A stretch of 41,620 nucleotides of DNA from a virus. Made by a program: the position numbers and the translations under genes. Under the pieces are notes generated by a model. It saw only the letters and a program-made list of their open reading frames with translations, did not search any database and was not told the origin of the DNA. Below are positions 1-25,723 of this stretch, one piece after another (positions within the stretch are counted from its first letter, which is position 1; each line of letters begins with the position of its first letter). The stretch lies in the UHGV virus genome UHGV-0179596, one strand, 5' to 3'.

Positions 1-1143
1 CTATGCTGTTTTGATATCTACGATAATCCAGTCTTTACCACGATCATCATTGTATCGGTCGGTCATTTTTCTGGATTTATGGCCTAACAACTTTTGCGTA
101 TCCAGACCCTGTTCCCGATATAACCGTTCTGACAGAGATCGCTGCTCATGAAATGTGGGCGCAGTTCCTTGCTCCCATTTTATGCCACATTTTTCCCGGG
201 CCTTTTTAAAAGCCGTTGTCAGAGTATTCGCAGAAACCTGGTCTCCTCTGTTTGCTTGAGAGGTAGTGTGACGGTAATGGACCAGATATTTACTAACAAC
301 AGCATCCCTGCACTGAGATATAACTTCACGAAGGGTAATATTCAGAGCATCGCATTTCAGGTTAAGCGGAATAGCAAGTTTTGAACCGGTTTTTTCCTGA
401 GTAATGTGCAACATGTCGTCCCATATATCAGAGAATTTCAAATTGCAGATATCGCCTAAACGTTGTCCAGTAACAAGAGCAAGTAGCATGCCGCATTTTA
501 AATAGGGCTGCCGTCTGCTTACGCTGTCAAATATTGCCTGCCATTCGGGCAGTGACAATCTTTGGCGGTTTACTCGATTTCGTGGTTGTTTTGTTGCCTG
601 CGCTGGGTTAAATCCTGGCGGAACATGTCCTGCGTGTTGTGCTTCTTTGAAGACGGCGATCAACACCATTCTCACGACTTGCGCCATCCTGTTATGACCT
701 TCAGCCTTTACAGCATCAATTATTTCGGCAATATCAAGTGCGGTAATATCCTTGAGGTGTTGCATTCCACAATGCTCACGGAAAAGACGAATGGGTTTGC
801 CTTTTTGCCGATAGGAGTTGGGTCTTAGTTCATTATGTTGCAGCCTGTCCTCTTGGATAGAAATATATTTATCAAGCCATTCTGTCACCGTAATGTCTGA
901 GCGCCTGCCTTTCATTCTTTCCAGACGCTCATTGACGCTTAATATTTGTCTGGTACGTTGTTCAGCAATAATGGTATTTGCTTCAGTAGCAACTTGTTTT
1001 GCTTCATTCTCATCAGTTCCTAAGCTATGAAAACGACCGGATAGTGGATGTTTGTATTGCCAATATACCTTTCCGGTTCGCTTATCTAATTTGCAATATA
1101 AATTGGGTATAGAGATTTTGTGAGATCGGGGTCTAGCAGCCAT
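1..1143 (-). CDS. int: Phage integrase, tyrosine recombinase (lambda Int family)
   Basis: 380-aa ORF with ATG at 1141-1143 and stop at the window edge; full-length resemblance to lambda Int by recall, including N-terminal PNLY and C-terminal HEQRSLSERLY...LLGHKS...DRY region; xis overlaps its 5' end. Confidence 0.93.
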   Translation of the reverse strand: MAARPRSHKISIPNLYCKLDKRTGKVYWQYKHPLSGRFHSLGTDENEAKQVATEANTIIAEQRTRQILSVNERLERMKGRRSDITVTEWLDKYISIQEDRLQHNELRPNSYRQKGKPIRLFREHCGMQHLKDITALDIAEIIDAVKAEGHNRMAQVVRMVLIAVFKEAQHAGHVPPGFNPAQATKQPRNRVNRQRLSLPEWQAIFDSVSRRQPYLKCGMLLALVTGQRLGDICNLKFSDIWDDMLHITQEKTGSKLAIPLNLKCDALNITLREVISQCRDAVVSKYLVHYRHTTSQANRGDQVSANTLTTAFKKAREKCGIKWEQGTAPTFHEQRSLSERLYREQGLDTQKLLGHKSRKMTDRYNDDRGKDWIIVDIKTA

Positions 1144-1369: not shown

Positions 1370-1508
1370 TTGTCCTCCTCTTAGCTGCTGAGGGAGTTTG
1401 TGACCGATATATCTGACATGATATTAAGCTCATGGCAGGTACATCTCTTGACTGGTCATAGAGATAAATTTAATGCTGAGAAATGCAGTATTGAATTTAT
1501 CAATTTTT

Positions 1509-2355: not shown

Positions 2356-2472
2356 CTGATAATTTTGCTTTTCATGTTCATCGTTCCTTAAAGACGCCGT
2401 TTAACATGCCGATTGCCAGGCTTAAATGAGTCGGTGTGAATCCCTTCAGCGTTACCGTTTCGCGGTGCTTCT

Positions 2473-3018: not shown

Positions 3019-3689
3019 TGCTCTCCAAATACAAAACCAATTTCAGCCAGTGCTTCGTCCATTTTTTCGATGAACTCCGGCACCATCTCGTCAAAACTCG
3101 CCATGTACTTTTCATCCCGCTCAACCACGACATAATGCAGGCCTTCACGCTTCATTCGTGGGTCATAGTTGGCAAAGTACCAGGCATCTTTTCGTGTCAC
3201 CCACATGCTGTACTGCACCTGGGCCATGTAAGCCGACTTTATGGCCTCGAAACCACCGAGCCGGAACTTCATGAAATCCCGGGAGGTAAACGGGCATTTC
3301 AGCTCAAGGCCATTGCCGTCACTGCATAAACCATCGGGAGAGCAGGCGGTGCGCATACTTTCGTCGCGATAGATGATCGGGGATTCAGTAACATTCACGC
3401 CGGAAGTGAATTCAAACAGGGTTCTGGCGTCGTTCTCGTACTGTTTTCCCCACGCCAGCGCCTTAGCATTAACTTCCGGAGCCACACCGGTGCAAACCTC
3501 AGCCAGCAGGGTGTGGAAGTAGGACATTTTCATGTCAGGCCACTTCTTTCCTGAGCGGGGCTTTGCTATCACGTTGTGAACTTCTGAAGCGGTGATGACG
3601 CCGAGCCGTAATTTGTGCCATGCATCATCCCCCTGTTCGACAGCTCTCACGTCGATCCCGGTACGCTGCAGGATAATGTCCGGTGTCAT
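3009..3689 (-). CDS. exo: Lambda exonuclease (Red alpha)
   Basis: 226-aa ORF essentially identical to lambda Exo by recall ([40 protein letters not shown]...). Confidence 0.97.
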
Positions 3690-6162: not shown

Positions 6163-6744
6163 ATGAACAACTCATGGTGGCAGGAACTAATGCATTTTTT
6201 CCTGCAAGGAATGACACTTAAACAGTTGATTCATATGCTAATCATCCTGATCATATTGATTATTGTTATGCCGGTAAGCGTAAAAGAATGGATAAACCTG
6301 CATAATCCAGAAATCCTTCCTCATTACTGGATGTATTACATCCTGTTGTTTTGCGTTAGCTATGTGCTTAACGGCGTTGTTAATTCCGCTTATCACGCTG
6401 TGACTGAAAGAATTGAGGTATTCGCTGCTCAGAAGCGCAAATCTAAAGAAGAAAAATATGTGCAAGATTTGTTTGATTCGTTAACTCTTGGAGAAAGAGC
6501 GTATTTGGCATTCGCTGTAGCCGCTAATAACCAGCTACAAACGGAAAAGGGCGCTCATGAATCAATTTCATTGCTCAAAAAAGGACTCCTCGTTCGAAGG
6601 CCTCCTGCTGTTGGATATCCTGATACCGACCGTTTCGTTATCCCTGAAAGCTATAGACATGAGTGCTACATTAGGTTTGCCGGGAAGGCAGACAGCCTTA
6701 TGGATGAACTTATCGCTCAGGATAAGCATGGCAAAAACAAGTAA
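6163..6744 (+). CDS. sieB: SieB superinfection exclusion protein
   Basis: 193-aa ORF matching lambda SieB by recall, with hydrophobic N-terminal region (LIHMLIILIILIIVMPV); opposite strand to the pL operon as in lambda. Confidence 0.9.
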   Translation: MNNSWWQELMHFFLQGMTLKQLIHMLIILIILIIVMPVSVKEWINLHNPEILPHYWMYYILLFCVSYVLNGVVNSAYHAVTERIEVFAAQKRKSKEEKYVQDLFDSLTLGERAYLAFAVAANNQLQTEKGAHESISLLKKGLLVRRPPAVGYPDTDRFVIPESYRHECYIRFAGKADSLMDELIAQDKHGKNK

Positions 6745-6760
6745 TTAGCAAATGAATTTA

Positions 6761-7033
6761 TCATCTCGCCGTCAGTTGTTTTGATTTCCGGTAGCCTGCC
6801 GCGTAAAGAGCTACGTTCGGAAGACAAGTTGAACCTTCATATTTTCTGGTCAACGTTGTCAGAGTTATCACTTCTGCTCTCATTGCTGGTTTGAGCTTGC
6901 ATTGCAAGACCACTCGTGAAGGGGTTGGCCTGTGTAGCTTGTCGGAGCTGATCGCCTCCTGACTTTGCAGATTTGCGCGACGAGCTCTACGGCGAGAAGC
7001 TGCGGTGCCTTTAAATTCTGTTTTTCTGGACAT
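6761..7033 (-). CDS. N: N-type transcription antiterminator (P22 gp24-like rather than lambda N)
   Basis: 90-aa reading from internal ATG at 7031-7033 preceded by SD GGGAGGA; arginine-rich motif GTAASRRRARRANLQ near N-terminus; C-terminus LPNVALYAAGYRKSKQLTAR resembles P22 gene 24 product from memory. Track ORF extends 24 codons further upstream. Confidence 0.8.
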   Translation of the reverse strand: MSRKTEFKGTAASRRRARRANLQSQEAISSDKLHRPTPSRVVLQCKLKPAMRAEVITLTTLTRKYEGSTCLPNVALYAAGYRKSKQLTAR

Positions 7034-7131
7034 GGATTCCTCCCGAATAAACTTTGGCGATGCAATCTCGAAGCTCCTCCTGAGACGGTTGCTTCGGCAT
7101 TGCATCCCACAGCTTATGTGGTTGGGTGATC

Positions 7132-7469: not shown

Positions 7470-8222
7470 TTATGCTGCAAGTCTCTTAACCCAAGTCTCT
7501 CTTTTGGAGAATGGTAGAACTTGGCTTGATTCATGGAAGAGTAAGGAGAGTTGTTGCATTTGATCACCAATTGCTTCGCTGTCTATAACAACAAATCTGT
7601 TGTTATACTCCTCACTTGAAGCTTTAAGATCAATTAGTTTCCCAAGCAATGAGTAAGCACTATTCCAGCTTCCTCCGTGTTTCACGCTTGATGTAAAAAC
7701 GTATTTAGGTATGTCGGTTTTTATTGTTACAGGGACGGTAATTTGATGTCCACTCAAGCCATATACGTTTTCACGAAGAGAAAGTGCGTCTCTAAGCTCT
7801 GTGTGATATAGATAATCAATAACCATACTTTCAAACTTTTCAGCTTGAACTGGCTGATACCAGTCTAACGACAAAGTTGATGCGAGTATACCAGCTCTAA
7901 TTATGTTCGATGTAATCGCACCGACATCCTTTTCTGTTGCCCAAGCAATGATTTCTCCTCGAGCATTGAGTTCTGCGCCTTCTTTAAGCAGTAATTGTCG
8001 TATCTCATCAAGTCGTTTTTTGGTAAGCGAGATCCCTCTTGCCTCCATATTCATTAAGGCATCGCATCTGTCACTAACTAAATACCTACCATTGACTTCA
8101 CGGATAAAGGCACCGACATGCTCTCCATCATCACAGTAAGTGAATGGACTGATAATTCTCAAGGTCTTGCCTATTGGATGGCATTCGAAACCTAGTTGTG
8201 AGATCACTGTTGAGCACATCAT
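7470..8222 (-). CDS. Hypothetical protein, second gene of cassette at the rexB position
   Basis: 250-aa ORF with ATG start overlapping the upstream stop (ATGA at 8219-8222); terminator immediately downstream; no TM segments or catalytic motifs recognised by eye; AT-rich. Confidence 0.7.
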   Translation of the reverse strand: MMCSTVISQLGFECHPIGKTLRIISPFTYCDDGEHVGAFIREVNGRYLVSDRCDALMNMEARGISLTKKRLDEIRQLLLKEGAELNARGEIIAWATEKDVGAITSNIIRAGILASTLSLDWYQPVQAEKFESMVIDYLYHTELRDALSLRENVYGLSGHQITVPVTIKTDIPKYVFTSSVKHGGSWNSAYSLLGKLIDLKASSEEYNNRFVVIDSEAIGDQMQQLSLLFHESSQVLPFSKRETWVKRLAA

Positions 8223-8776
8223 ATTCCAAACCCCATTTGCCCCGACTCATCTTCAAGCGGTAAAGGTATTCTCCCAGAGTAAGTTATGTTCAGATGTTTA
8301 CAGAAGTAATTCCAATACCCTACCAGGTCATCTGGGTTTATGTCATCTTCGATTGGAAACGCTATTCTATCACTATAGTATCCAGCTTCTTCATAGTATA
8401 CATGGTAGTGAGCACCGTAAATGATATCTTGGTACTTCGGATGATCGACCTTGTAACTATTCGTGTGTTTGTCAAAGTGATAGGTATCTACCGCGAAAAC
8501 CCTCTTGTTATGATAGAAAGCAATAATATTTATTTTAGGGTAAGAAATCGGGTCATCAGGTTCTGAATCCTGATCTGGTTTCCATTTCAGTTCAAACTTT
8601 AGCCCTTGTATAGGTATACAATCCTCATCCAAGGGGATGATATGGGCTTGTAGCCACATATCAGAGCGACTTGGTTTCTGTTTCCATTTAACGCCAGAAA
8701 AGTTAACTATTTTTTTACAATAAAGTACTTTATCAACTTCTACTTGGCTTGGCTGATAATCATCTATTTTTGCCAA
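8219..8776 (-). CDS. Hypothetical protein, first gene of cassette at the rexA position
   Basis: 185-aa ORF starting 39 nt after cI stop; first in-frame start is TTG at 8774-8776 (next ATG at codon 40), so the true start is uncertain; aromatic/His-rich stretch HYHVYYEEAGYY; no family recognised. Confidence 0.65.
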   Translation of the reverse strand: MAKIDDYQPSQVEVDKVLYCKKIVNFSGVKWKQKPSRSDMWLQAHIIPLDEDCIPIQGLKFELKWKPDQDSEPDDPISYPKINIIAFYHNKRVFAVDTYHFDKHTNSYKVDHPKYQDIIYGAHYHVYYEEAGYYSDRIAFPIEDDINPDDLVGYWNYFCKHLNITYSGRIPLPLEDESGQMGFGI

Positions 8777-8815: not shown

Positions 8816-9475
8816 TCACCCAAACGTCTCTTCAGGCCATTGGCTGGCGATAACTTTCCCCACAACGGAACAACTCTCATTGCATGGGATCATTGGGTAT
8901 TGTGGGTTTAGTGGCTGTAGAAACACCTGACCGCTATCCCTGATCAGTTTCTTGAAGGTAAATTCATCACCACCAAGTCTGGCTATGCAGAAATCGCCGG
9001 GCTCAACAGCTTGCTCAGGGTCAACCAGAATTAACATCCCGTCAGGAAAGCTGGGTTTGGAACCTGTTGGTGCGGTCATTGAGTTACCTTCAACCTCAAG
9101 CCAGAATGCAGAGTCACTGGCTTTTTTGGTTGTGCTTACCAATCTCTCCGCATCGCCTTTGGTAAAGGTTCTGAGTTCTGGAGAGAACATCCCAGCCTGA
9201 ACATGAGAAAAAACAGGGTACTCATATTGTTTTTTAACTGGGGCCGATGAGTATTCGCCAACAGGTGAAAATGTCCCGTCGTGGTTGAATGATATGTTAT
9301 CAATACCAAGGTATTTAAACACCACACCAATATCACTAAGAGATGGATGACGAGATCCGCGCAACCAGTGTCCAATCCCACCCTGCGTCATACCTAGCTC
9401 TTCGGCTAACTTCTCTTGAGTTATGCCGAGCTCTTTCATTCTGGATCTAGCCAGTTCATACCATTTCATTTTCAT
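8816..9475 (-). CDS. cI: CI repressor with lambda-type C-terminal autocleavage domain and non-lambda N-terminal HTH domain
   Basis: From [21 protein letters not shown] onward the sequence matches lambda cI to the C-terminus; N-terminal domain ([37 protein letters not shown]) differs. Start taken at MKMKW (ATG 9475, or 9469); track ORF begins 14 codons upstream. Confidence 0.92.
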
Positions 9476-9586
9476 GTCCTTATTATTACGCTCTGTACTG
9501 GAACCATCCATGCACAATGTGTATTTTTACTTGTATTCGCAAAGTACATATTGTATTTTTTTATTCGTGTTTACTATGGAGGGCAT
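9476..9586. promoter_or_regulatory. Divergent PRM/PR promoter and OR operator region (position-based)
   Basis: 111-bp AT-rich intergenic region between divergent cI and cro; contains TTGTA/TACA half-site repeats; individual operators not resolved. Confidence 0.6.
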
Positions 9587-13368: not shown

Positions 13369-13712
13369 CAATGGATTATTCACAGTTAAGTGATTTTGAA
13401 ATTAACAGAATGGTAGGAGACATAATTTTTAAAGGCCTTTGGGCAAGTAAACCGGAAACATCAGGGAATAACACCAACAAATGGTATTACGGAAATGCTG
13501 ATACAACTTTTGAGCCATTAAATCATTTGCCTGACTACTGCAATGATCCGAGCGCTTCATGGCCGATTATTGAGAAATACAGGATTTCTATCTTAGACCA
13601 GTTAACTGAATGGTGTGTGGATGCAAAAGGCGTAAGCCCAATATTTGATACCAGACCTCTCCGCGCCGCCATGATTGTCTTTCTCCTGATGCAGGAGGCC
13701 AATAATGCTTAG
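13365..13712 (+). CDS. Hypothetical nin-region protein
   Basis: About 115-aa ORF starting at ATG overlapping ninE stop; no family recognised. Confidence 0.55.
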
Positions 13713-13899
13713 CCCATCTCAATCCCTTCAATACCTGAAAGAAAGCATAGAGCGGGCTTCAATGTGCACAGAGTGGATTCTATCTAGGTTTAGCGCATAC
13801 AGAAGATTGCCGGTAAAGGGCATGCCAAGCAAGTCGATGCTGCATATGCAAAAGAATGCGCGCTGGAAGGTATGGCGAGAACACAGGTTATGTGGCTGA
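13705..13899 (+). CDS. Hypothetical small protein
   Basis: 64-aa ORF whose ATG overlaps the upstream stop (ATGCTTAG); translational coupling is the main support. Confidence 0.45.
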
Positions 13900-13918
13900 A
13901 AGAGGGGGTTATTAAGGC

Positions 13919-14281
13919 GTGAATACCTACAGCATCACATTACCCTGGCCTCCGAGCAATAATCGCTATTACCGCCATAATCGCGGGCGCACGCACGTCA
14001 GCGCAGAGGGGCAGGCATACCGCGATAACGTCGCCCGAATCATTAAAAACGCAATGCTGGATATCGGCCTGGCTATGCCTGTGAAAATCCGCATTGAGTG
14101 CCACATGCCGGATCGCCGTCGCCGTGACCTGGATAATCTGCAAAAAGCCGCTTTTGACGCACTCACTAAAGCAGGTTTCTGGCTGGATGATGCTCAGGTC
14201 GTTGATTACCGCGTTGTGAAGATGCCTGTTACCAAAGGTGGGAGGCTGGAACTGACCATCACCGAAATGGGGAATGAATGA
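13919..14281 (+). CDS. rusA: RusA Holliday junction resolvase
   Basis: 120-aa ORF with GTG start and SD AGAGGGGG; sequence matches E. coli DLP12 RusA as I recall it. Confidence 0.93.
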
Positions 14282-14418
14282 TGTTTGAGTTTAATATGGC
14301 AGAACTTCTTCGCCACCGCTGGGGGCGTCTGCGCTTATATCGTTTCCTCGGTTCTGTTTTGACCGATTACCGAATACTGAAGAATTACGCCAAAACCCTG
14401 ACAGGAACAGGAGTATGA
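14278..14418 (+). CDS. ylcG: YlcG-like small protein
   Basis: 46-codon ORF translated by hand ([46 protein letters not shown]), overlapping rusA stop; resembles DLP12 ylcG by recall. Below track cutoff. Confidence 0.45.
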
Positions 14419-14503
14419 AGTCAGAGATAACAATCAACTAATACTGTTTTGTTGATTTTTGCTTGTAATTGGCGTTCTGGTCTGATTTTTGTGGAGTAAG
14501 TTG

Positions 14504-14887
14504 ATGCGTGATATTCAGATGGTTCTTGAGCGTTGGGGTGCGTGGGCGGCTAATAATCATGAAGATGTGACCTGGTCGTCCATTGCCGCCGGTTTTAAGG
14601 GATTAATTCCTTCAAAAGTAAAATCTCGCCCGCAATGTTGTGACGATGACGCGATGATCATTTGCGGGTGCATGGCCCGTCTGAAAAAGAACAACAGCGA
14701 TTTACACGATTTATTAGTAGATTATTATGTATGTGGTATGACATTCATGTCACTGGCAAGTAAGCATTGCTGCTCGGATGGTTATATCGGGAAAAGGTTA
14801 CAGAAGGCTGAGGGCATAATTGAAGGGATGTTAATGGCATTAGATATCCGGTTAGATATGGATATCGTTGCTAATAATTCTAATTGA
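14504..14887 (+). CDS. Q: Late-gene antiterminator Q (phage 21 / QuuD type)
   Basis: 127-aa reading from [21 protein letters not shown]...; Cys-rich motifs ([18 protein letters not shown]); matches DLP12 QuuD by recall. Track ORF starts at an upstream TTG. Confidence 0.85.
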
Positions 14888-14914
14888 TATGCAATTGTTT
14901 ACTAAAAGTTATTA

Positions 14915-14937
14915 AAAATGGGGCGTGGAAACGCCCC
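14915..14937 (-). terminator. Putative terminator downstream of nmpC (minus strand)
   Basis: Hairpin GGGGCGT-TTCC-ACGCCCC followed on the minus strand by AUUUUUAAUAACUUUU; lies between Q stop and porin 3' end. Coordinates approximate. Confidence 0.45.
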
Positions 14938-15024
14938 CAAAATAAAGGGTAATATATAACAGAAGGTTTATATAGTAAGAAGCAAGGTAGTGCTTCTAAA
15001 GGAAGTGGCTTGAGGGCTCCACTT

Positions 15025-15065
15025 ATATGTTGCGGAGGCAAAGCCTCCCGCAACATATCTTTTTC
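15025..15065 (+). terminator. Strong plus-strand hairpin terminator after Q (candidate tR')
   Basis: Near-perfect 14-bp inverted repeat ATATGTTGCGGAGG-CAAAG-CCTCCCGCAACATAT followed by CTTTTT, about 140-180 nt after Q stop and abutting the nmpC 3' end. Confidence 0.5.
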
Positions 15066-15075
15066 GTAAGTCAGA

Positions 15076-16158
15076 TTAGAACTGATAAACCAGACCTACA
15101 GCGACGATGTCGTCGGTATCAATACCAGCTGTTTTGGTAAACTTACTATCGTCAATTAAGTTGATTTTGTAATCAACAAAAGTGGACATGTTTTTATTAA
15201 AGTAGTAAGTAGCACCGACATCGACATACTTGACTAAGTCTCGGTCACCATGAACACCAAGGTCTTTACCTTTTGACTGAAGGTAAGCAACAGATGGACG
15301 CAGACCGAAGTCAAACTGATATTGTGCTACTGCTTCAAAGTTTTGTGCTTTGTTTGCAATATGGTTATTACCAAAAACGGTCATATTCTGAGTTTCAGAA
15401 TATGTGGTAGCCAGATAGATATTGTTCGCATCATATTTCAGGCCTGCAGCCCATACTTCCGCATTTTTGCCGGAGGCATTGAATTTGCTCTTACCATAGG
15501 CGACCTGACCGTCAGTGCGATCTGATTTAGCATAGGTTGCACCCACGCCGAATCCTTCATACTCATAAGTAGTGGAGAAACCGAAACCATCACCATTGGC
15601 TTCAGTTACGTCAGTGCGGTCATTTTTACCCTGATACTGAGCAGCAAAGTTCAGGCCATCGACCAGACCAAAGAAGTCGTTGTTACGATAAGTTGCAACA
15701 CCAGTAGTGCGACCAGTCATGAACACATCTGTTTGGGTCCAGGTATCGCCACCGAATTCTGGCAGAACGTCAGTCCACGCACCGATGTCGTATGCTACAC
15801 CGTAGTTACGGCCGTAATCGATTGAGCCGTAATCACCAAATTTCAGGCCTGCAAATGCAAGACGGGTTTTGTCTTTGGAAGAACCTTGAGATTCAGCACG
15901 GTTGCCTTTGAATTCATATTCCCACTGACCGAAACCAGTCAGTTGATCGTTGATTTGGGTTTCACCTTTGAAGCCAAGACGGGCATAAGTAGTATCACCA
16001 TCATCTGCATCATTAGAGGAGAAGTAGTGCTTGGCATTAACTTTCCCGTATAGATCCAGCTTGTTACTGTCTTTATTATAAATTTCAGCTGCCTGAGCAG
16101 ACATCGCCATCAGTACTGATGCAGCTACAGCAGAAATTGCCACTGTTAATTTTTTCAT
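15076..16158 (-). CDS. nmpC: Outer membrane general porin, OmpC/OmpF/PhoE family (NmpC-like, apparently intact)
   Basis: Signal peptide [23 protein letters not shown] then mature porin ending in the C-terminal aromatic VYQF; matches my recollection of E. coli NmpC. Start taken at MKK (16158); track ORF starts 20 codons upstream at a non-ATG codon. Confidence 0.92.
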
Positions 16159-16584
16159 TGTACGCCCTTTTTTTGAACTATTATTAAAAAATGATGTCAC
16201 TGCGCGATAAATATTCATCTAATCAATGTGATTATTTCAAGATGTAAGTTTTAGTTTCTCATTTAATTTGTGAAGTAGATCTCTATTTTTATCTGAACCT
16301 TTTCTATCTAATCCTATTCATGGCTCTTGTCTGAACAAAAATAAATCTATTAGCTAATTTATATTAATGGCACTTATTTATAAGTGCTCTATAATTCTTT
16401 AGCTTAATTTAAACAAACTAAAAATAACATTGGAAATTATTAACTGGTTATTTGTTGAAGTTTTCTTATGCATTTGTGGTGGTGTTTTGAACACTCGGTG
16501 GCATTCTCACAAATATCATTTAGTAGTTTACGTACGTAAAAAATTGGTTATGCTGTTAAGAGTGGTTACTTCGTCACACAGCTT

Positions 16585-16617
16585 AAACCCGCCGTCGAGC
16601 GGGTTTTTCCATTTTTT
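16585..16617 (+). terminator. Plus-strand hairpin plus U-tract upstream of S (alternative tR' candidate)
   Basis: AAACCCGC-CGTCGA-GCGGGTTT followed by TTCCATTTTTT, about 130 nt upstream of the holin start. Confidence 0.5.
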
Positions 16618-16746
16618 GAGTCTCGATATTAGCTGATAACCCAATACCTGAGTTATTCACTGACTCCGAATCTGTTACGTTTCTGCCTTTATTGCGATAC
16701 GTAGTATCCCCTTAATTTACACCCGCTTTGTCTGCGAGGTGGGGTT

Positions 16747-16962
16747 ATGAAATCCATGGATAAGTTAACAACGGGTGTCGCCTATGGTACCTCAGCAGGT
16801 AGTGCCGGGTACTGGTTTTTACAGTTGCTCGATAAAGTCACGCCCTCACAGTGGGCGGCAATAGGTGTGCTGGGTAGCCTGGTATTTGGCCTGCTGACGT
16901 ACCTGACAAACCTTTATTTCAAGATTAAAGAAGATAAGCGCAAGGCTGCGAGAGGTGAATAA
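16747..16962 (+). CDS. S: Class II holin (phage 21 S21-type pinholin) with dual-start motif
   Basis: 71-aa [31 protein letters not shown]... matching phage 21 S; two in-frame ATGs (16747 and 16756) give the antiholin/holin pair known for S21. Confidence 0.9.
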
Positions 16963-17459
16963 TGCCTCCATCATTACGAAAAGCCGTTGCTGCTGCTATT
17001 GGTGGCGGAGCAATTGCTATAGCATCAGTGTTAATCACTGGCCCAAGTGGTAACGATGGTCTGGAAGGTGTCAGCTACATACCATACAAAGATATTGTTG
17101 GTGTATGGACTGTATGTCACGGGCATACAGGAAAAGACATCATGCTCGGTAAAACGTATACCAAAGCAGAATGCAAAGCCCTCCTGAATAAAGACCTTGC
17201 CACGGTCGCCAGACAAATTAACCCGTACATCAAAGTCGATATACCGGAAACAATGCGCGGCGCTCTTTACTCATTCGTTTACAACGTGGGTGCTGGCAAT
17301 TTCAGAACATCGACGCTTCTTCGCAAAATAAACCAGGGCGATATCAAAGGCGCATGTGATCAGCTACGTCGCTGGACATATGCTGGCGGTAAGCAATGGA
17401 AAGGTCTCATGACTCGTCGTGAGATTGAGCGTGAAATCTGTTTGTGGGGTCAGCAATGA
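16962..17459 (+). CDS. R: SAR endolysin (lysozyme, phage 21 R21 type)
   Basis: 165-aa ORF with N-terminal signal-anchor-release segment ([20 protein letters not shown]) and lysozyme body; matches R21 by recall; start overlaps S stop. Confidence 0.92.
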
Positions 17460-17917
17460 ACAGAGTAACCGCGATTATCTCCGCTCTGGTTATCTGCATC
17501 ATCGTCTGCCTGTCATGGGCTGTTAATCATTACCGTGATAACGCCATTACCTACAAAGCCCAGCGCGACAAAAATGCCAGAGAACTGACGCTGGCGAACG
17601 CGGTAATTACTGACATACAGATGCGTCAGCGTGATGTTGCTGCGCTCGATGCAAAATACACGAAGGAGTTAGCTGATGCGAAAGCTGAAAATGATGCTCT
17701 GCGTGATGATGTTGCCGCTGGTCGTCGTCGGTTGCACATCAAAGCAGTCTGTCAGTCAGTGCGTGAAGCCACCACCGCCTCCGGCGTGGATAATGCAGCC
17801 TCCCCCCGACTGGCAGACACCGCTGAACGGGATTATTTCACCCTCAGAGAGAGGCTGATCACTATGCAAAAACAACTGGAAGGAACCCAGAAGTATATTA
17901 ATGAGCAGTGCAGATAG
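17456..17917 (+). CDS. Rz: Rz inner-membrane spanin
   Basis: 153-aa reading from [21 protein letters not shown]... with N-terminal TM segment and coiled-coil body; overlaps R stop. Confidence 0.88.
17676..17858 (+). CDS. Rz1: Rz1 outer-membrane lipoprotein spanin
   Basis: 60-aa ORF embedded in Rz in the +1 frame; lipobox VVVGC and proline-rich PPPPPAW segment; matches lambda Rz1 by recall. Confidence 0.85.
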
Positions 17918-17948
17918 AGCTGCCCATATCGATGGGCAACTCATGCAA

Positions 17949-18242
17949 TTATTGTGAGCAATACACACGCGCTTCCAGCGGAGTATAAATGCCTAAAGTA
18001 ATAAAACCGAGCAATCCATTTACGAATGTTTGCTGGGTTTCTGTTTTAACAACATTTTCTGCACCACCACAAATTTTTGCTGCATCGACAGTTTTCTTCT
18101 GCCCAATTCCCGAAACGAAGAAATGATGGGTGATGGTTTCCTTTGGTGTTACTGCTGTAGGTTTGTTTCCAACAGTAAACGTCTGTTGAGCACATCCTGT
18201 AATAAGCATTGCCAGAGCGGCAGAAAACAACATTTTTTTCAT
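17949..18242 (-). CDS. bor: Bor lipoprotein (serum resistance, Iss family)
   Basis: 97-aa reading from MKKMLFSAALAMLITGCAQQTFTV... with lipobox ITGC; matches lambda Bor. Track ORF begins 16 codons upstream. Confidence 0.9.
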   Translation of the reverse strand: MKKMLFSAALAMLITGCAQQTFTVGNKPTAVTPKETITHHFFVSGIGQKKTVDAAKICGGAENVVKTETQQTFVNGLLGFITLGIYTPLEARVYCSQ

Positions 18243-18722
18243 CTTATTATCCTGCATTGTTAAAAACGGCAGAATCCTATGTGACAACAATTAAACGATA
18301 GTTAAATGGATTGATGAAAATTAAAACTACACAGGTGGGCTCAGACTATTGGAGGAAGTTGGGGACACTCAGAATCCTGTGGAATGAAATAAACCGGTCT
18401 ATCCGTCCATTACCCTTTTAGCTGCGCTGTATCGTCGCCGTATTCCCGCATTAACCATGACCGTAGCCCGACGGGGAATTCCTTCTGCGTGAGTGTGCGG
18501 GAATAATTAAAAACGATGCACACCGGGTTTTTACCGCGTTAATGATTCGCGGGTTTATCCCGGTGCGATGGTGGAAGAAACAGGAAGCTGTATTACAGAA
18601 AGTGCTACTACTGTATCCCGATGCGATGTATGTAATGTGAGTCAGATAATGGCACAGGATGTGGTGATGTGGCAGTCTGGAACACAGGATATATTGTCAG
18701 AATAAGACCCGTAGGAATAAAA

Positions 18723-19049
18723 ATGAAAAGACGCCTTTTACTACTTTTTCTGTTATCTGTCCTGGCAGTGGGATGCTCGCAGCAAAAAGCTGATGAGCCC
18801 CGGCAATTAGTGACGGTGTATCCACGATATCCGGAATATGCTGCAGCAAATTATATCAAGGGGCTGGTTGAGGTTAAGTTCGATATTGGTGCTGATGGGA
18901 CTGTGACACGGATCGTTTTTCTCCGCTCAGAGCCTCATAATTTGTTTCGTGATGAAGTGGTGAAGGCCATGGCGAAATGGCGATTTGAAAAGAATCGCCC
19001 CTGTCAGGGAGTGAAGAGACAATTTATCTTTACGCCGTCACGTCCTTGA
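18723..19049 (+). CDS. Putative lipoprotein with TonB C-terminal-like domain
   Basis: 108-aa reading from MKRRLLLLFLLSVLAVGC (lipobox LAVGC) with SD AGGAA; body YPRYPEYAAANYIKGLVEVKFDIGADGTVTRIVFLRSEPHNLFRDEVVKAMAKWRFE resembles the TonB C-terminal domain signature. Confidence 0.65.
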   Translation: MKRRLLLLFLLSVLAVGCSQQKADEPRQLVTVYPRYPEYAAANYIKGLVEVKFDIGADGTVTRIVFLRSEPHNLFRDEVVKAMAKWRFEKNRPCQGVKRQFIFTPSRP

Positions 19050-19171: not shown

Positions 19172-19525
19172 TCATTTCTTCTTTTTCTCTGGTGGAACCC
19201 GATGAATAAGAGTTGCACTGGTTTCCGATGAGATGGCGATATACTCGGGCAAAGTATGCTGGCAGTTTTCCAACTGGTCAAAAATACCTGCTCTCGTCTG
19301 TTGCAATGCCTGCAGCATGCGGCGGCAATGCGCCTTGCTTTTACTAACCATCTTTCCTTCCTCTATCAGTCGCTGCGTGAACTCATCATGGAATACCAGG
19401 TAAATGCGGATGTTATCGGTTTTGGCTACGCAGCATAGTACAAAACGGACAGGTGCATCCCGGGACGGGGGAGGCGTCACATGTCCCTGTGATGGTTGTT
19501 CCGGGTAATGTACTGTGTGGGGCAT
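19172..19525 (-). CDS. Hypothetical ORF (uncertain)
   Basis: 117-aa ORF with no SD at its first ATG; an internal ATG (MVSKSK, 59 aa) has SD AGGAAGGA; overlaps the next ORF in another frame; ends in KKKK. Confidence 0.25.
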   Translation of the reverse strand: MPHTVHYPEQPSQGHVTPPPSRDAPVRFVLCCVAKTDNIRIYLVFHDEFTQRLIEEGKMVSKSKAHCRRMLQALQQTRAGIFDQLENCQHTLPEYIAISSETSATLIHRVPPEKKKK

Positions 19526-19664
19526 AAAAATGTCCGATAATTTTACTTTCTACCGCAGTTAGTTGATTCGTTGGTCCTGGTAGCACATTGGGCGAGGATT
19601 TAAATGCCAGGCAACTGAAGGATGATGTCGCAAGGGAGATAGCGAGAATATTTCTGATTTTCAT
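19413..19664 (-). CDS. Hypothetical small exported Cys-rich protein (uncertain)
   Basis: 83-aa reading from MKIRNILAISLATSSFSCLAF (signal-peptide-like) with SD AGAGG; C-terminus TGTCDASPVPGCTCPFCTM. Mutually exclusive in part with 19172..19525. Confidence 0.3.
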   Translation of the reverse strand: MKIRNILAISLATSSFSCLAFKSSPNVLPGPTNQLTAVESKIIGHFYAPHSTLPGTTITGTCDASPVPGCTCPFCTMLRSQNR

Positions 19665-19812
19665 TTGATGATGCCTCTGTGTGAAATGACGGTAAACGAC
19701 GCACTTGTGCCGGCACATAATAGCAAGCACCATAATAGATCAGATTCGATTCTTGCTGTAAGTGATAATTATTCTCGTTTTCGGGTCCTTTCCGTCGATC
19801 CAACAGGTTACG

Positions 19813-24228: not shown

Positions 24229-25723
24229 TCTTTCACACATTATTGCCGCAGCATTCAATGAACCGCTGCTTCTGGAGCCCGCCTATGCGCGGGTTTTCTT
24301 TTGCGCGCTCGGGCGCGAGATGGGGGCAGCAAGTCTTTCGGTACCACAACAGCAGGTACAGTTTGATGCTCCCGGAATGCTGGCTGAAACGGACGAGTAC
24401 ATGGCCGGAGGTAAACGACCGGCCCGTGTTTACCGGGTGGTGAACGGTATTGCTGTACTGCCGGTGACCGGCACGCTGGTGCACCGGCTGGGTGGTATGC
24501 GGCCATTTTCCGGAATGACAGGCTATGACGGCATTGTCGCCTGTCTTCAGCAGGCAATGGCGGATAGCCAGGTGCGGGGCGTACTGCTGGACATTGACAG
24601 TCCGGGCGGGCAGGCCGCCGGCGCGTTTGACTGCGCTGACATGATTTACCGCCTCCGTCAGCAGAAGCCGGTCTGGGCACTGTGCAATGACACGGCCTGT
24701 TCTGCAGCCATGCTGCTGGCGTCGGCCTGCTCCCGACGGCTGGTTACCCAGACATCCCGTATCGGCTCCATTGGCGTGATGATGAGCCATGTCAGCTATG
24801 CCGGTCATCTGGCGCAGGCCGGTGTGGATATCACGCTGATTTACTCAGGGGCGCACAAGGTGGATGGCAATCAGTTTGAAGCGTTGCCGGCAGAGGTTCG
24901 CCAGGACATGCAGCAGCGGATTGATGCGGCGCGCCGGATGTTTGCCGAAAAAGTGGCGATGTATACCGGTCTGTCTGTTGATGCCGTCACGGGAACAGAG
25001 GCTGCCGTTTTTGAAGGTCAGTCCGGCATTGAGGCCGGGCTGGCGGATGAATTAATCAATGCGTCGGATGCCATCAGTGTGATGGCCACGGCGCTGAACA
25101 GTAATGTCAGAGGAGGCACTATGCCGCAATTAACTGCAACGGAAGCCGCCGCGCAGGAGAACCAGCGAGTGATGGGGATCCTGACATGCCAGGAAGCGAA
25201 AGGACGTGAACAGCTTGCCACGATGCTGGCAGGACAACAGGGCATGAGCGTTGAACAGGCCCGGGCGATTCTGGCCGCGGCGGCACCGCAGCAGCCGGTG
25301 GCATCCACGCAGAGTGAAGCCGATCGCATTATGGTGTGTGAAGAAGCGAACGGTCGTGAACAACTGGCGGCAACGCTGGCGGCGATGCCGGAGATGACGG
25401 TGGAAAAAGCCCGCCCGATCCTGGCTGCTTCACCGCAGGCGGATGCCGGACCATCACTCCGTGATCAGATCATGGCACTGGATGAGGCAAAAGGGGCTGA
25501 GGCGCAGGCTGAACAGCTGGCTGCCTGCCCGGGAATGACAGTGGAGAGCGCCCGGGCTGTGCTGGCTGCGGGATCAGGTAAGGCAGAACCGGTCTCTGCA
25601 TCCACAACCGCCATGTTTGAACATTTCATGGCGAACCATTCACCGGCAGCGGTACAGGGTGGCGTGGCACAGACGTCAGCAGACGGTGATGCGGACGTGA
25701 AAATGCTCATGGCCATGCCATGA
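24218..25723 (+). CDS. C: Head maturation protease C (S49 family) with nested scaffold region
   Basis: 501-aa ORF with GTG start overlapping B; N-terminal part matches lambda gpC (AFNEPLLLEPAYARVFFCAL, VWALCNDTACSAAMLLASACSRRLVTQTSRIGSIGVMMSH). Confidence 0.92.
   Translation: MRRNLSHIIAAAFNEPLLLEPAYARVFFCALGREMGAASLSVPQQQVQFDAPGMLAETDEYMAGGKRPARVYRVVNGIAVLPVTGTLVHRLGGMRPFSGMTGYDGIVACLQQAMADSQVRGVLLDIDSPGGQAAGAFDCADMIYRLRQQKPVWALCNDTACSAAMLLASACSRRLVTQTSRIGSIGVMMSHVSYAGHLAQAGVDITLIYSGAHKVDGNQFEALPAEVRQDMQQRIDAARRMFAEKVAMYTGLSVDAVTGTEAAVFEGQSGIEAGLADELINASDAISVMATALNSNVRGGTMPQLTATEAAAQENQRVMGILTCQEAKGREQLATMLAGQQGMSVEQARAILAAAAPQQPVASTQSEADRIMVCEEANGREQLAATLAAMPEMTVEKARPILAASPQADAGPSLRDQIMALDEAKGAEAQAEQLAACPGMTVESARAVLAAGSGKAEPVSASTTAMFEHFMANHSPAAVQGGVAQTSADGDADVKMLMAMP
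25121..25723 (+). CDS. nu3: Nu3-like scaffold from an in-frame internal start in C
   Basis: In-frame ATG at codon 302 of C preceded by SD AGGAGG; product carries the RIMGIL...AHGRE... motif known from lambda Nu3, here present three times. Confidence 0.7.
   Translation: MPQLTATEAAAQENQRVMGILTCQEAKGREQLATMLAGQQGMSVEQARAILAAAAPQQPVASTQSEADRIMVCEEANGREQLAATLAAMPEMTVEKARPILAASPQADAGPSLRDQIMALDEAKGAEAQAEQLAACPGMTVESARAVLAAGSGKAEPVSASTTAMFEHFMANHSPAAVQGGVAQTSADGDADVKMLMAMP

Follow-up and report, generated by a model that had tools for sequence, protein, structure and literature searches.

Lambdoid phages in which a porin gene sits between the late antiterminator gene Q and the lysis gene S are already known, from lc of phage PA-2 (1986) and from the quuD-nmpC-essD region of the E. 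coli K-12 prophage DLP12. We examined a locus of this kind in the virus genome UHGV-0179596, a stretch of 41,620 nt hereafter called the window, where positions 14888-16746 separate Q from S and hold a porin gene on the minus strand. Comparison with related phages makes it very probable that the late promoter pR' lies between the porin gene and S, with late transcription directed away from the porin and with crossed terminators at the porin 3' end.

The PA-2 entry (J02580, deposited as 'Rz gene, ORF2, lc and ORF1') has the same layout as the window: the 3' end of Q, two hairpins and a minus-strand porin gene, along with a shared AT-rich regulatory region, pR' cassette and S21-type lysis genes. 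DNA identity in the segment following Q is about 93%, the pR' cassette is identical save for one stem base (the window hairpin being without the mismatch seen in PA-2), and the differences between the two porins lie mainly in a few short stretches, two short indels among them. The DLP12 region (quuD-nmpC-essD-rrrD) and phage 434B (OL657227) have the same genes in the same order and on the same strands, with a pR' cassette and a regulatory region nearly identical to those of the window, but in K-12 and 434B the porin gene is cut by IS5 after codon 346, whereas that of the window is intact. A first-pass annotation of the window had recognised the NmpC-type porin gene between Q and S together with three hairpins, at 15025-15058 and 16585-16606 on the plus strand and 14937-14920 on the minus strand, and had suggested the comparison with DLP12; these observations are confirmed by the ORFs, profile matches and folding energies given below, and the interpretation attached to them is supported in part.

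Closer relatives still exist among sequenced genomes. In a prophage of E. coli ATCC 11775 positions 14504-16962 are 100% identical to the window (RefSeq annotates quuD, porin, essD and rrrD), positions 14400-17000 are 99.9% identical to phages ev017 and PhiR57_1, and among 5426 complete E. coli genomes 2395 have the layout over at least 80% of the query. As the arrangement has long been on record and occurs in nearly half of complete E. coli genomes, the window itself matters little.

Two further systems bear on the position of pR'. The Shiga toxin (Stx) phage 933W and prophages Sp5 and Sp15 of strain Sakai have a Q of the same family (81-84% identical) and a homologous -35, -10, leader and first hairpin; in 933W, however, pR' overlaps the 3' end of Q, whereas that of the window is 1.64 kb away. 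The Q-pR'-6S RNA-tR' region of lambda follows the same logic of a constitutive late promoter, a short terminated leader and Q-dependent read-through into S, but lambda Q belongs to a different protein family without significant sequence similarity to the window Q, the leader is about 190 nt long, and pR' begins some 50 bp past Q with no cargo between.

Position of the late promoter

Positions 16524-16608 of the window align at 77-79% identity with the annotated late promoter, qut site and first terminator that in both VT2-Sakai and 933W are found where Q ends. As this homologous cassette lies between the porin gene and S and the Q proteins are of matching family, pR' is most probably located there (Table 1). 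In Sakai Stx phages, differential RNA sequencing (dRNA-seq) and Term-seq put the pR' start 258 nt upstream of the 3' end of tR' (PMC7547250). Counted on 933W, this length leads to an A situated 7 nt past the annotated -10 hexamer TATCAT, whose equivalent in the window is A16561; the start was placed by transcript length because the genome coordinates of that paper disagree with the RefSeq version. We also considered the conserved A-run as the true -10, with TATGCT as a pause element, and rejected it since the 258-nt Sakai transcript fits a start 7 nt past TATCAT.

In an alignment of six phages (the window, PA-2, the 434B/DLP12 type, 933W, SfII and phiP27), the block that starts at the -10, includes GTTAAGAGTGGTTAC and ends with the hairpin and T-run is invariant or nearly so while both flanks diverge; the Q proteins of four of the six were compared and are 43-100% identical. 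The hairpin at 16585-16606 is kept in 933W, SfII and phiP27, its position being conserved across Q alleles, and in mEp390 (Q 53% identical) a near-copy of the cassette is present whose hairpin has another stem sequence in that position. The window contains a single copy of the 13-mer TAAGAGTGGTTAC. The invariant leader at 16555-16584 is presumably the pause and Q-loading region, and termination at the candidate tR' would leave a leader RNA some 50 nt long. This hairpin folds at -12.0 kcal/mol (z-score -3.2, 1 of 200 shuffles as good) and is the sole terminator-like site found by the terminator scan between pR' and S.

Unlike that of the textbook cassette, this promoter is not adjacent to Q: the stop codon of Q ends at 14887, whereas the -35 starts at 16527, with the porin segment in between. 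Nucleotide homology to 933W stops near 14866 (codon 120-121 of Q) and resumes at 16524-16527. Codons 1-120 are homologous to 933W Q (81% amino acid identity over residues 1-120; 81-84% against 933W and other Stx phages), and the last 7 codons are part of the porin-associated segment. Compared with 933W and its compact Q-pR' arrangement, the window thus appears to have some 1.66 kb (roughly 14864-16523) in place of the C-terminal tail of Q, with pR' displaced. This segment carries the minus-strand porin gene, along with an AT-rich regulatory region and a predicted terminator of the gene's own.

The DLP12 lysis operon has been reported to be under Q control, and the published DLP12 lysis-promoter reporter fragment lies wholly to the S side of the porin, at window positions 16086-16867. 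From the primers and the -121/+650 numbering of that fragment, the '+1' of an RpoE study falls on the plus strand at about 16207, a position that is 49 nt away from the start codon of the porin and antisense to its 5' region. Weakly sigma-E-like hexamers are present there (GAACT at 16175-79 and GTCAC at 16196-200, plus strand), and a strict sigma-E search (GAACT-N14-18-TCNNA) gave no match in this region. If such a promoter were active, its transcripts would overlap the porin 5' untranslated region (UTR) and then meet pR' and tR'.

With the general model of lambdoid regulation as a guide, the sequence suggests the following course of promoter use, termination and Q loading. In the lysogen, polymerase leaving pR' would halt at 16585-16606 after some 50 nt, and the porin would be expressed from its own promoter. 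Upon induction, the N-antiterminated pR transcript would yield Q, which would load on polymerase at pR', 1.65 kb from the Q gene, and the modified polymerase would pass the hairpin into S-R-Rz and the structural genes, away from the porin. Only N-modified polymerase would cross the porin gene in antisense, and then in lytic growth. The first-pass annotation had offered two alternatives, pR'/tR' immediately after Q or a late promoter between porin and S, and had expected direct conflict between porin expression and late transcription in both. The second alternative is the one borne out by the 933W/Sakai-homologous cassette at 16527-16608, while the first finds no promoter-like site; the expected conflict does not follow, as pR' (16527-16561) points away from the porin, so that pR' and the porin promoter would stand back to back and the two units would be divergent. 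Head-on conflict would probably be limited to early pR read-through past Q and possibly to the sigma-E-type promoter reported for DLP12.

Table 1. Features of the window and of the compared cassettes. Gene spans are from the open reading frame (ORF) listing of the window and E-values from Pfam profile matches; positions preceded by an L number are those of the phage record so labelled.
Feature	Position	Strand	Basis or remark
Integrase	1-1143		
SieB	6163-6744		
N antiterminator	6761-7105		
cI	8816-9517		
RusA	13919-14281	+	Pfam RusA
Small YlcG-like ORF	14278-14418	+	counterpart ORF annotated YlcG in relatives
Q antiterminator, 127 aa, Q21/Q933W family	14504-14887	+	Phage_antitermQ PF06530, 6.7e-54, full profile
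Structured convergent intergenic segment	14888-15075	.	occurs with porin
Candidate intrinsic terminator of porin transcript	14937-14910	-	stem GGGGCGT/ACGCCCC at 14920-14937
Long hairpin and short T-tract	15025-15064	+	11 nt before porin stop codon
Porin, 360 aa	15076-16158	-	Porin_1 PF00267, 1.9e-151
AT-rich porin regulatory region	16159-16526	-	26.5% GC vs about 48-52% in neighbouring genes
Predicted pR'	16527-16554	+	-35 TTTACG 16527-32, 16-nt spacer, -10 TATGCT 16549-54
12-bp perfect palindrome TTACGTACGTAA, candidate Q-binding element	16528-16539		overlaps -35/spacer
Predicted start site (near A16561) and nearly invariant initial transcribed region GTTAAGAGTGGTTACTTCGTCACACAGCTT	16555-16584	+	
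tR' candidate hairpin AAACCCGC-CGTCGA-GCGGGTTT, then TTCCATTTTTT	16585-16618	+	terminator scan match
S21-type (pin)holin, first late gene	16747-16962	+	Phage_holin_2_1 PF04971, 2e-35
Lysozyme, SAR-type (signal-anchor-release) endolysin	16962-17459	+	PF00959, 1.3e-45
Rz / Rz1	17444-17917 / 17676-17858	+	ORFs at positions annotated Rz/Rz1 in relatives
Bor	17949-18245	-	PF06291
Dyad counterpart, 933W TTACGATCGTAA	L005 1924-1935		
Dyad counterpart, SfII GCGTACGC	L007 about 2453-2460		
Dyad counterpart, phiP27 GGAATTCC	L008 about 1482-1489		
Dyad counterpart, mEp390 GCGGTCCGC	L006 about 3318-3326		

Candidate terminators and alternative readings

The energies of the three hairpins were each compared with those of 200 shuffles. 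The generic terminator scan was not above chance (7 sites found against 4.4 +/- 2.0 expected), so the weight here rests on conservation across phages. The minus-strand hairpin at 14937-14920 is followed by ATTTTTAATA, with a U-tract in the minus direction only; it folds at -13.8 kcal/mol (4/200 shuffles as good), its stem is invariant and its loop alone varies in 7 porin-carrying phages, and about 25 nt remain between the end of the terminator and the Q stop codon. The longer stem at 15025-15058 is followed by C and by TTTTT at 15060-64, a T-tract present on the plus strand only. Its folding energy of -22.9 kcal/mol (z -4.7) was equalled by none of the 200 shuffles, and the hairpin is kept in 7 phages with a shifted bulge position.

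These two hairpins could act as crossed, strand-specific convergent terminators. For lack of a U-tract in the minus direction, the 15025-15058 hairpin would let the porin transcript pass, and this transcript would end at 14937-14910 before Q; unmodified plus-strand transcription from Q would cross the 14920-37 hairpin and end at 15025-15064, before the porin stop codon. Neither coding region would then be transcribed in antisense, and the porin transcript and the Q-side transcript would overlap at their 3' ends by about 150 nt of the segment 14888-15075. Only 36 records of the phage collection were found to have the region 14860-15080, and every one of them carries the porin as well, compared with 420 records for Q homologues and 360 for the pR' cassette region, which suggests that the segment following Q belongs to the porin and not to Q. 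The 15025-15064 hairpin, proposed earlier as tR', is better read as the end of a non-antiterminated early/Q transcript.

Several observations weigh against the arrangement favoured here, a pR' between porin and S with crossed terminators upstream. Some concern the promoter itself, as the pR' hexamers agree with the consensus at 8/12 positions, below the threshold of the promoter scan, which did not call pR', and no clear -10-like pause hexamer was identified in the invariant leader. A conserved TAnnnT hexamer is absent from it (933W has TACATT where the window has TACTTC), and a lambda-like pause motif, AAGAGT-GG (AACGAT-GGG in lambda), straddles the deduced start instead of occupying +1 to +6.

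Others concern the hairpin next to the porin stop codon, whose T-tract is short (5 T in the window, 4 T in three relatives). This hairpin may act mainly on the minus strand, where it would stabilise the 3' end of the porin mRNA or be a barrier to processing, as part of a structured 3' UTR that is possibly a source of small RNA; its plus-strand T-tract would be incidental. The 171-nt porin 3' region (14905-15075, minus strand) folds into five consecutive hairpins (-53.6 kcal/mol, z -5.8) and the entire segment is inherited together with the porin gene, both in keeping with such a role, and a porin 3' UTR of this kind could serve as a stabilising element or small-RNA source. Inverted repeats fold on either strand, however, and the plus-strand fold of the segment also has a z-score of -4.0; there are no compensatory changes in the region among 7 phages, and two inner hairpins have uncompensated mismatches in relatives. 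An Rfam search of 13500-18500 with E up to 1 gave two chance-level matches only, none of them relevant, and a structured 3' UTR is compatible with plus-strand termination too. We regard this reading of the hairpin as possible, if rather doubtful.

A third set of observations concerns the candidate tR'. In Sakai the homologous first hairpin is not final, since the 258-nt transcripts read through it to a second terminator (PMC7547250), and the efficiency of the window hairpin is uncertain for that reason. Neither the terminator scan nor sequence matching found that second terminator in the window. In PA-2 and ev099 a stem mismatch weakens the hairpin to -5.8 kcal/mol, as against -12.0 in the window. 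The hairpin could accordingly be a leaky element, with late genes silenced in the lysogen by other means, for example a weak pR' or the action of Rho on the 135-nt untranslated leader. It is, however, the only terminator-like site before the holin gene, and its position is kept though its sequence changes, as in mEp390; we consider it unlikely that the element is merely leaky.

The PA-2/ev099 variant is a natural G-to-T change in the 3' arm, giving a C.U mismatch at the equivalent of window position 16601 (L003 about 1770; L013), and as it is present in two independent records it is not a sequencing error. A comparison with the StxS RNA of 933W was also made. Of the 933W pR'-tR' stretch, the window matches the first 81 nt only; neither the second terminator nor the 74-nt 3' part, which has the regulatory activity, has a match. 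A secondary blastn match of the 933W hairpin, at 24275-24300, is inside a coding region and was set aside as chance.

The last observation of this kind comes from phage Lambda_ev066, which may have another arrangement, with late transcription antisense through its cargo. Its Q is 88% identical to that of the window over residues 1-120, the first 180 nt of the gene being 98-100% identical up to a mosaic breakpoint in mid-gene. The sequence following its Q (L004 2891-3008) contains a promoter-like TTGCTG-17-TAATGT, a -10-like TAGAAT and a strong terminator, and the next gene is a minus-strand blc lipocalin gene; a second terminator-like hairpin, preceded by AT-rich promoter-like sequence, is found upstream of S (L009 about 3270-3350). 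For the window, a pR'/tR' directly after Q, with the 15025-15064 hairpin as tR' and 1.6 kb of antisense transcription through the porin by Q-modified polymerase, is highly improbable: the hairpin is strong, stands at the usual Q-adjacent spot and may have a parallel in Lambda_ev066 with blc as cargo, but the promoter scan of 14888-15025 gave no promoter-like site, the segment was never found in porin-less carriers of this Q family in the phage collection, and the homologue of the mapped 933W/Sakai pR' is present once in the window, at 16527-16608.

Candidate Q-binding elements

The Q of the window belongs to a Pfam family, PF06530, named Q21/Q933W (10.1101/651190). A Q-binding element is expected between the -35 and -10 hexamers, and that of Q21 is a direct repeat of TGAGCA (PMC6606751). 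This direct repeat is absent from the window cassette. The perfect palindrome listed in Table 1 has a symmetric counterpart at the same place in the other four cassettes examined, each of these elements standing directly before an A/T run, and among the four cassettes with Q compared, the element changes together with the predicted recognition helix of Q. Variation of the -35/spacer region with the Q allele is what a Q-binding element located there would show. We tentatively suggest that these dyads are Q-binding elements and that Q933W-type proteins bind head-to-head, unlike Q21, while regarding the idea as doubtful. If true, a simple sequence rule would predict which Q acts on which late operon, stx operons among them.

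The porin and other cargo genes

The porin ORF extends mechanically to 16218, with the true start at the MKKLTVAIS codon at 16158. Solved mature chains of OmpC, OmpK36 and PhoE align from residue 24 (AEIYNK), and residues 1-23 are for that reason taken as the signal peptide; the protein ends in VYQF, with a final aromatic Phe, in agreement with the intact signal peptide and aromatic C-terminus noted in the first-pass annotation. Residues 29-360 match positions 1-337 of the Porin_1 profile, its full length, the NCBIfam OmpC subfamily model is matched at 521 bits (cut-off 484), and identity to PA-2 Lc is 91%. The nearest solved relatives are OmpC, OmpK36/37 and PhoE. Judged by these matches, the protein is an intact Lc/NmpC-type general porin of the OmpC/OmpF/PhoE family, and the genes flanking it are the same as in PA-2, 434B and DLP12. 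PA-2 Lc ('protein 2') counts as a classical lysogenic-conversion porin under catabolite control, and PA-2 itself is reported to use OmpC as receptor; a literature search on PA-2 porin biology returned nothing specific.

Within the AT-rich region upstream of the porin, a CRP-like site TGTGA-N6-TCTCT at 16266-16286, transferred by alignment from the PA-2 annotation, is plausible. The second PA-2 'CRP site' aligns with 16561-16581, that is with the invariant pR' leader, matches CRP poorly and was treated as a 1986-era prediction. The promoter scan, which gave no minus-strand match in 16159-16526, did not locate the porin promoter; a plus-strand scan site at 16367-16395 (10/12) was not adopted, its -35 region not being conserved in PA-2 or 434B. 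With its own predicted terminator, a composition unlike that of its neighbours and apparently independent transcription, the porin gene has the attributes of a moron or lysogenic-conversion gene.

The position of the late promoter relative to such cargo has consequences for its expression. The cargo of 933W (tRNAs and stx) is found on the plus strand past pR' and depends on Q, whereas that of the window lies upstream of pR', on the minus strand, and would be independent of Q. A late promoter downstream of the cargo would insulate the porin from Q-driven transcription and allow it to act as a lysogen-expressed conversion gene; cargo downstream of pR', such as stx, depends in contrast on induction. 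SfII and mEp390 have Q, a minus-strand cargo unrelated to the porin, the pR' cassette and the holin gene in this order. Since these two phages, and possibly Lambda_ev066, host other minus-strand cargo, the Q/pR' junction appears to be a recurrent insertion point for lysogen-expressed genes. Phage 434B has a minus-strand gene for an LpxR-type lipid A deacylase beside a truncated lambda-type Q fragment (L001 1622-2581), which is another outer-membrane cargo at a Q-gene boundary.

Taken as a whole, the window is a temperate, lambda-like phage genome: it has integrase, N, cI, O, P, Q, S-R-Rz and bor. The long plus-strand ORFs beyond 20 kb were taken, unscanned, as genes for terminase, head and tail. 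In the interval between N and cI, which rexAB occupies in lambda, two minus-strand genes (7470-8222 and 8219-8776) match only DUF1828 and, weakly, DUF6978, and may be lysogen-expressed exclusion or defence genes. Directly after bor, a plus-strand gene (18669-19049) encodes a predicted 126-aa lipoprotein with a TonB C-terminal domain (PF03544, 1.1e-12), apparently a second envelope-related cargo of the late region. Two overlapping minus-strand ORFs at 19172-19733, between the TonB-like gene and the putative terminase ORFs, gave no family match; one of them encodes a small Cys-rich protein with a signal-peptide-like N-terminus.

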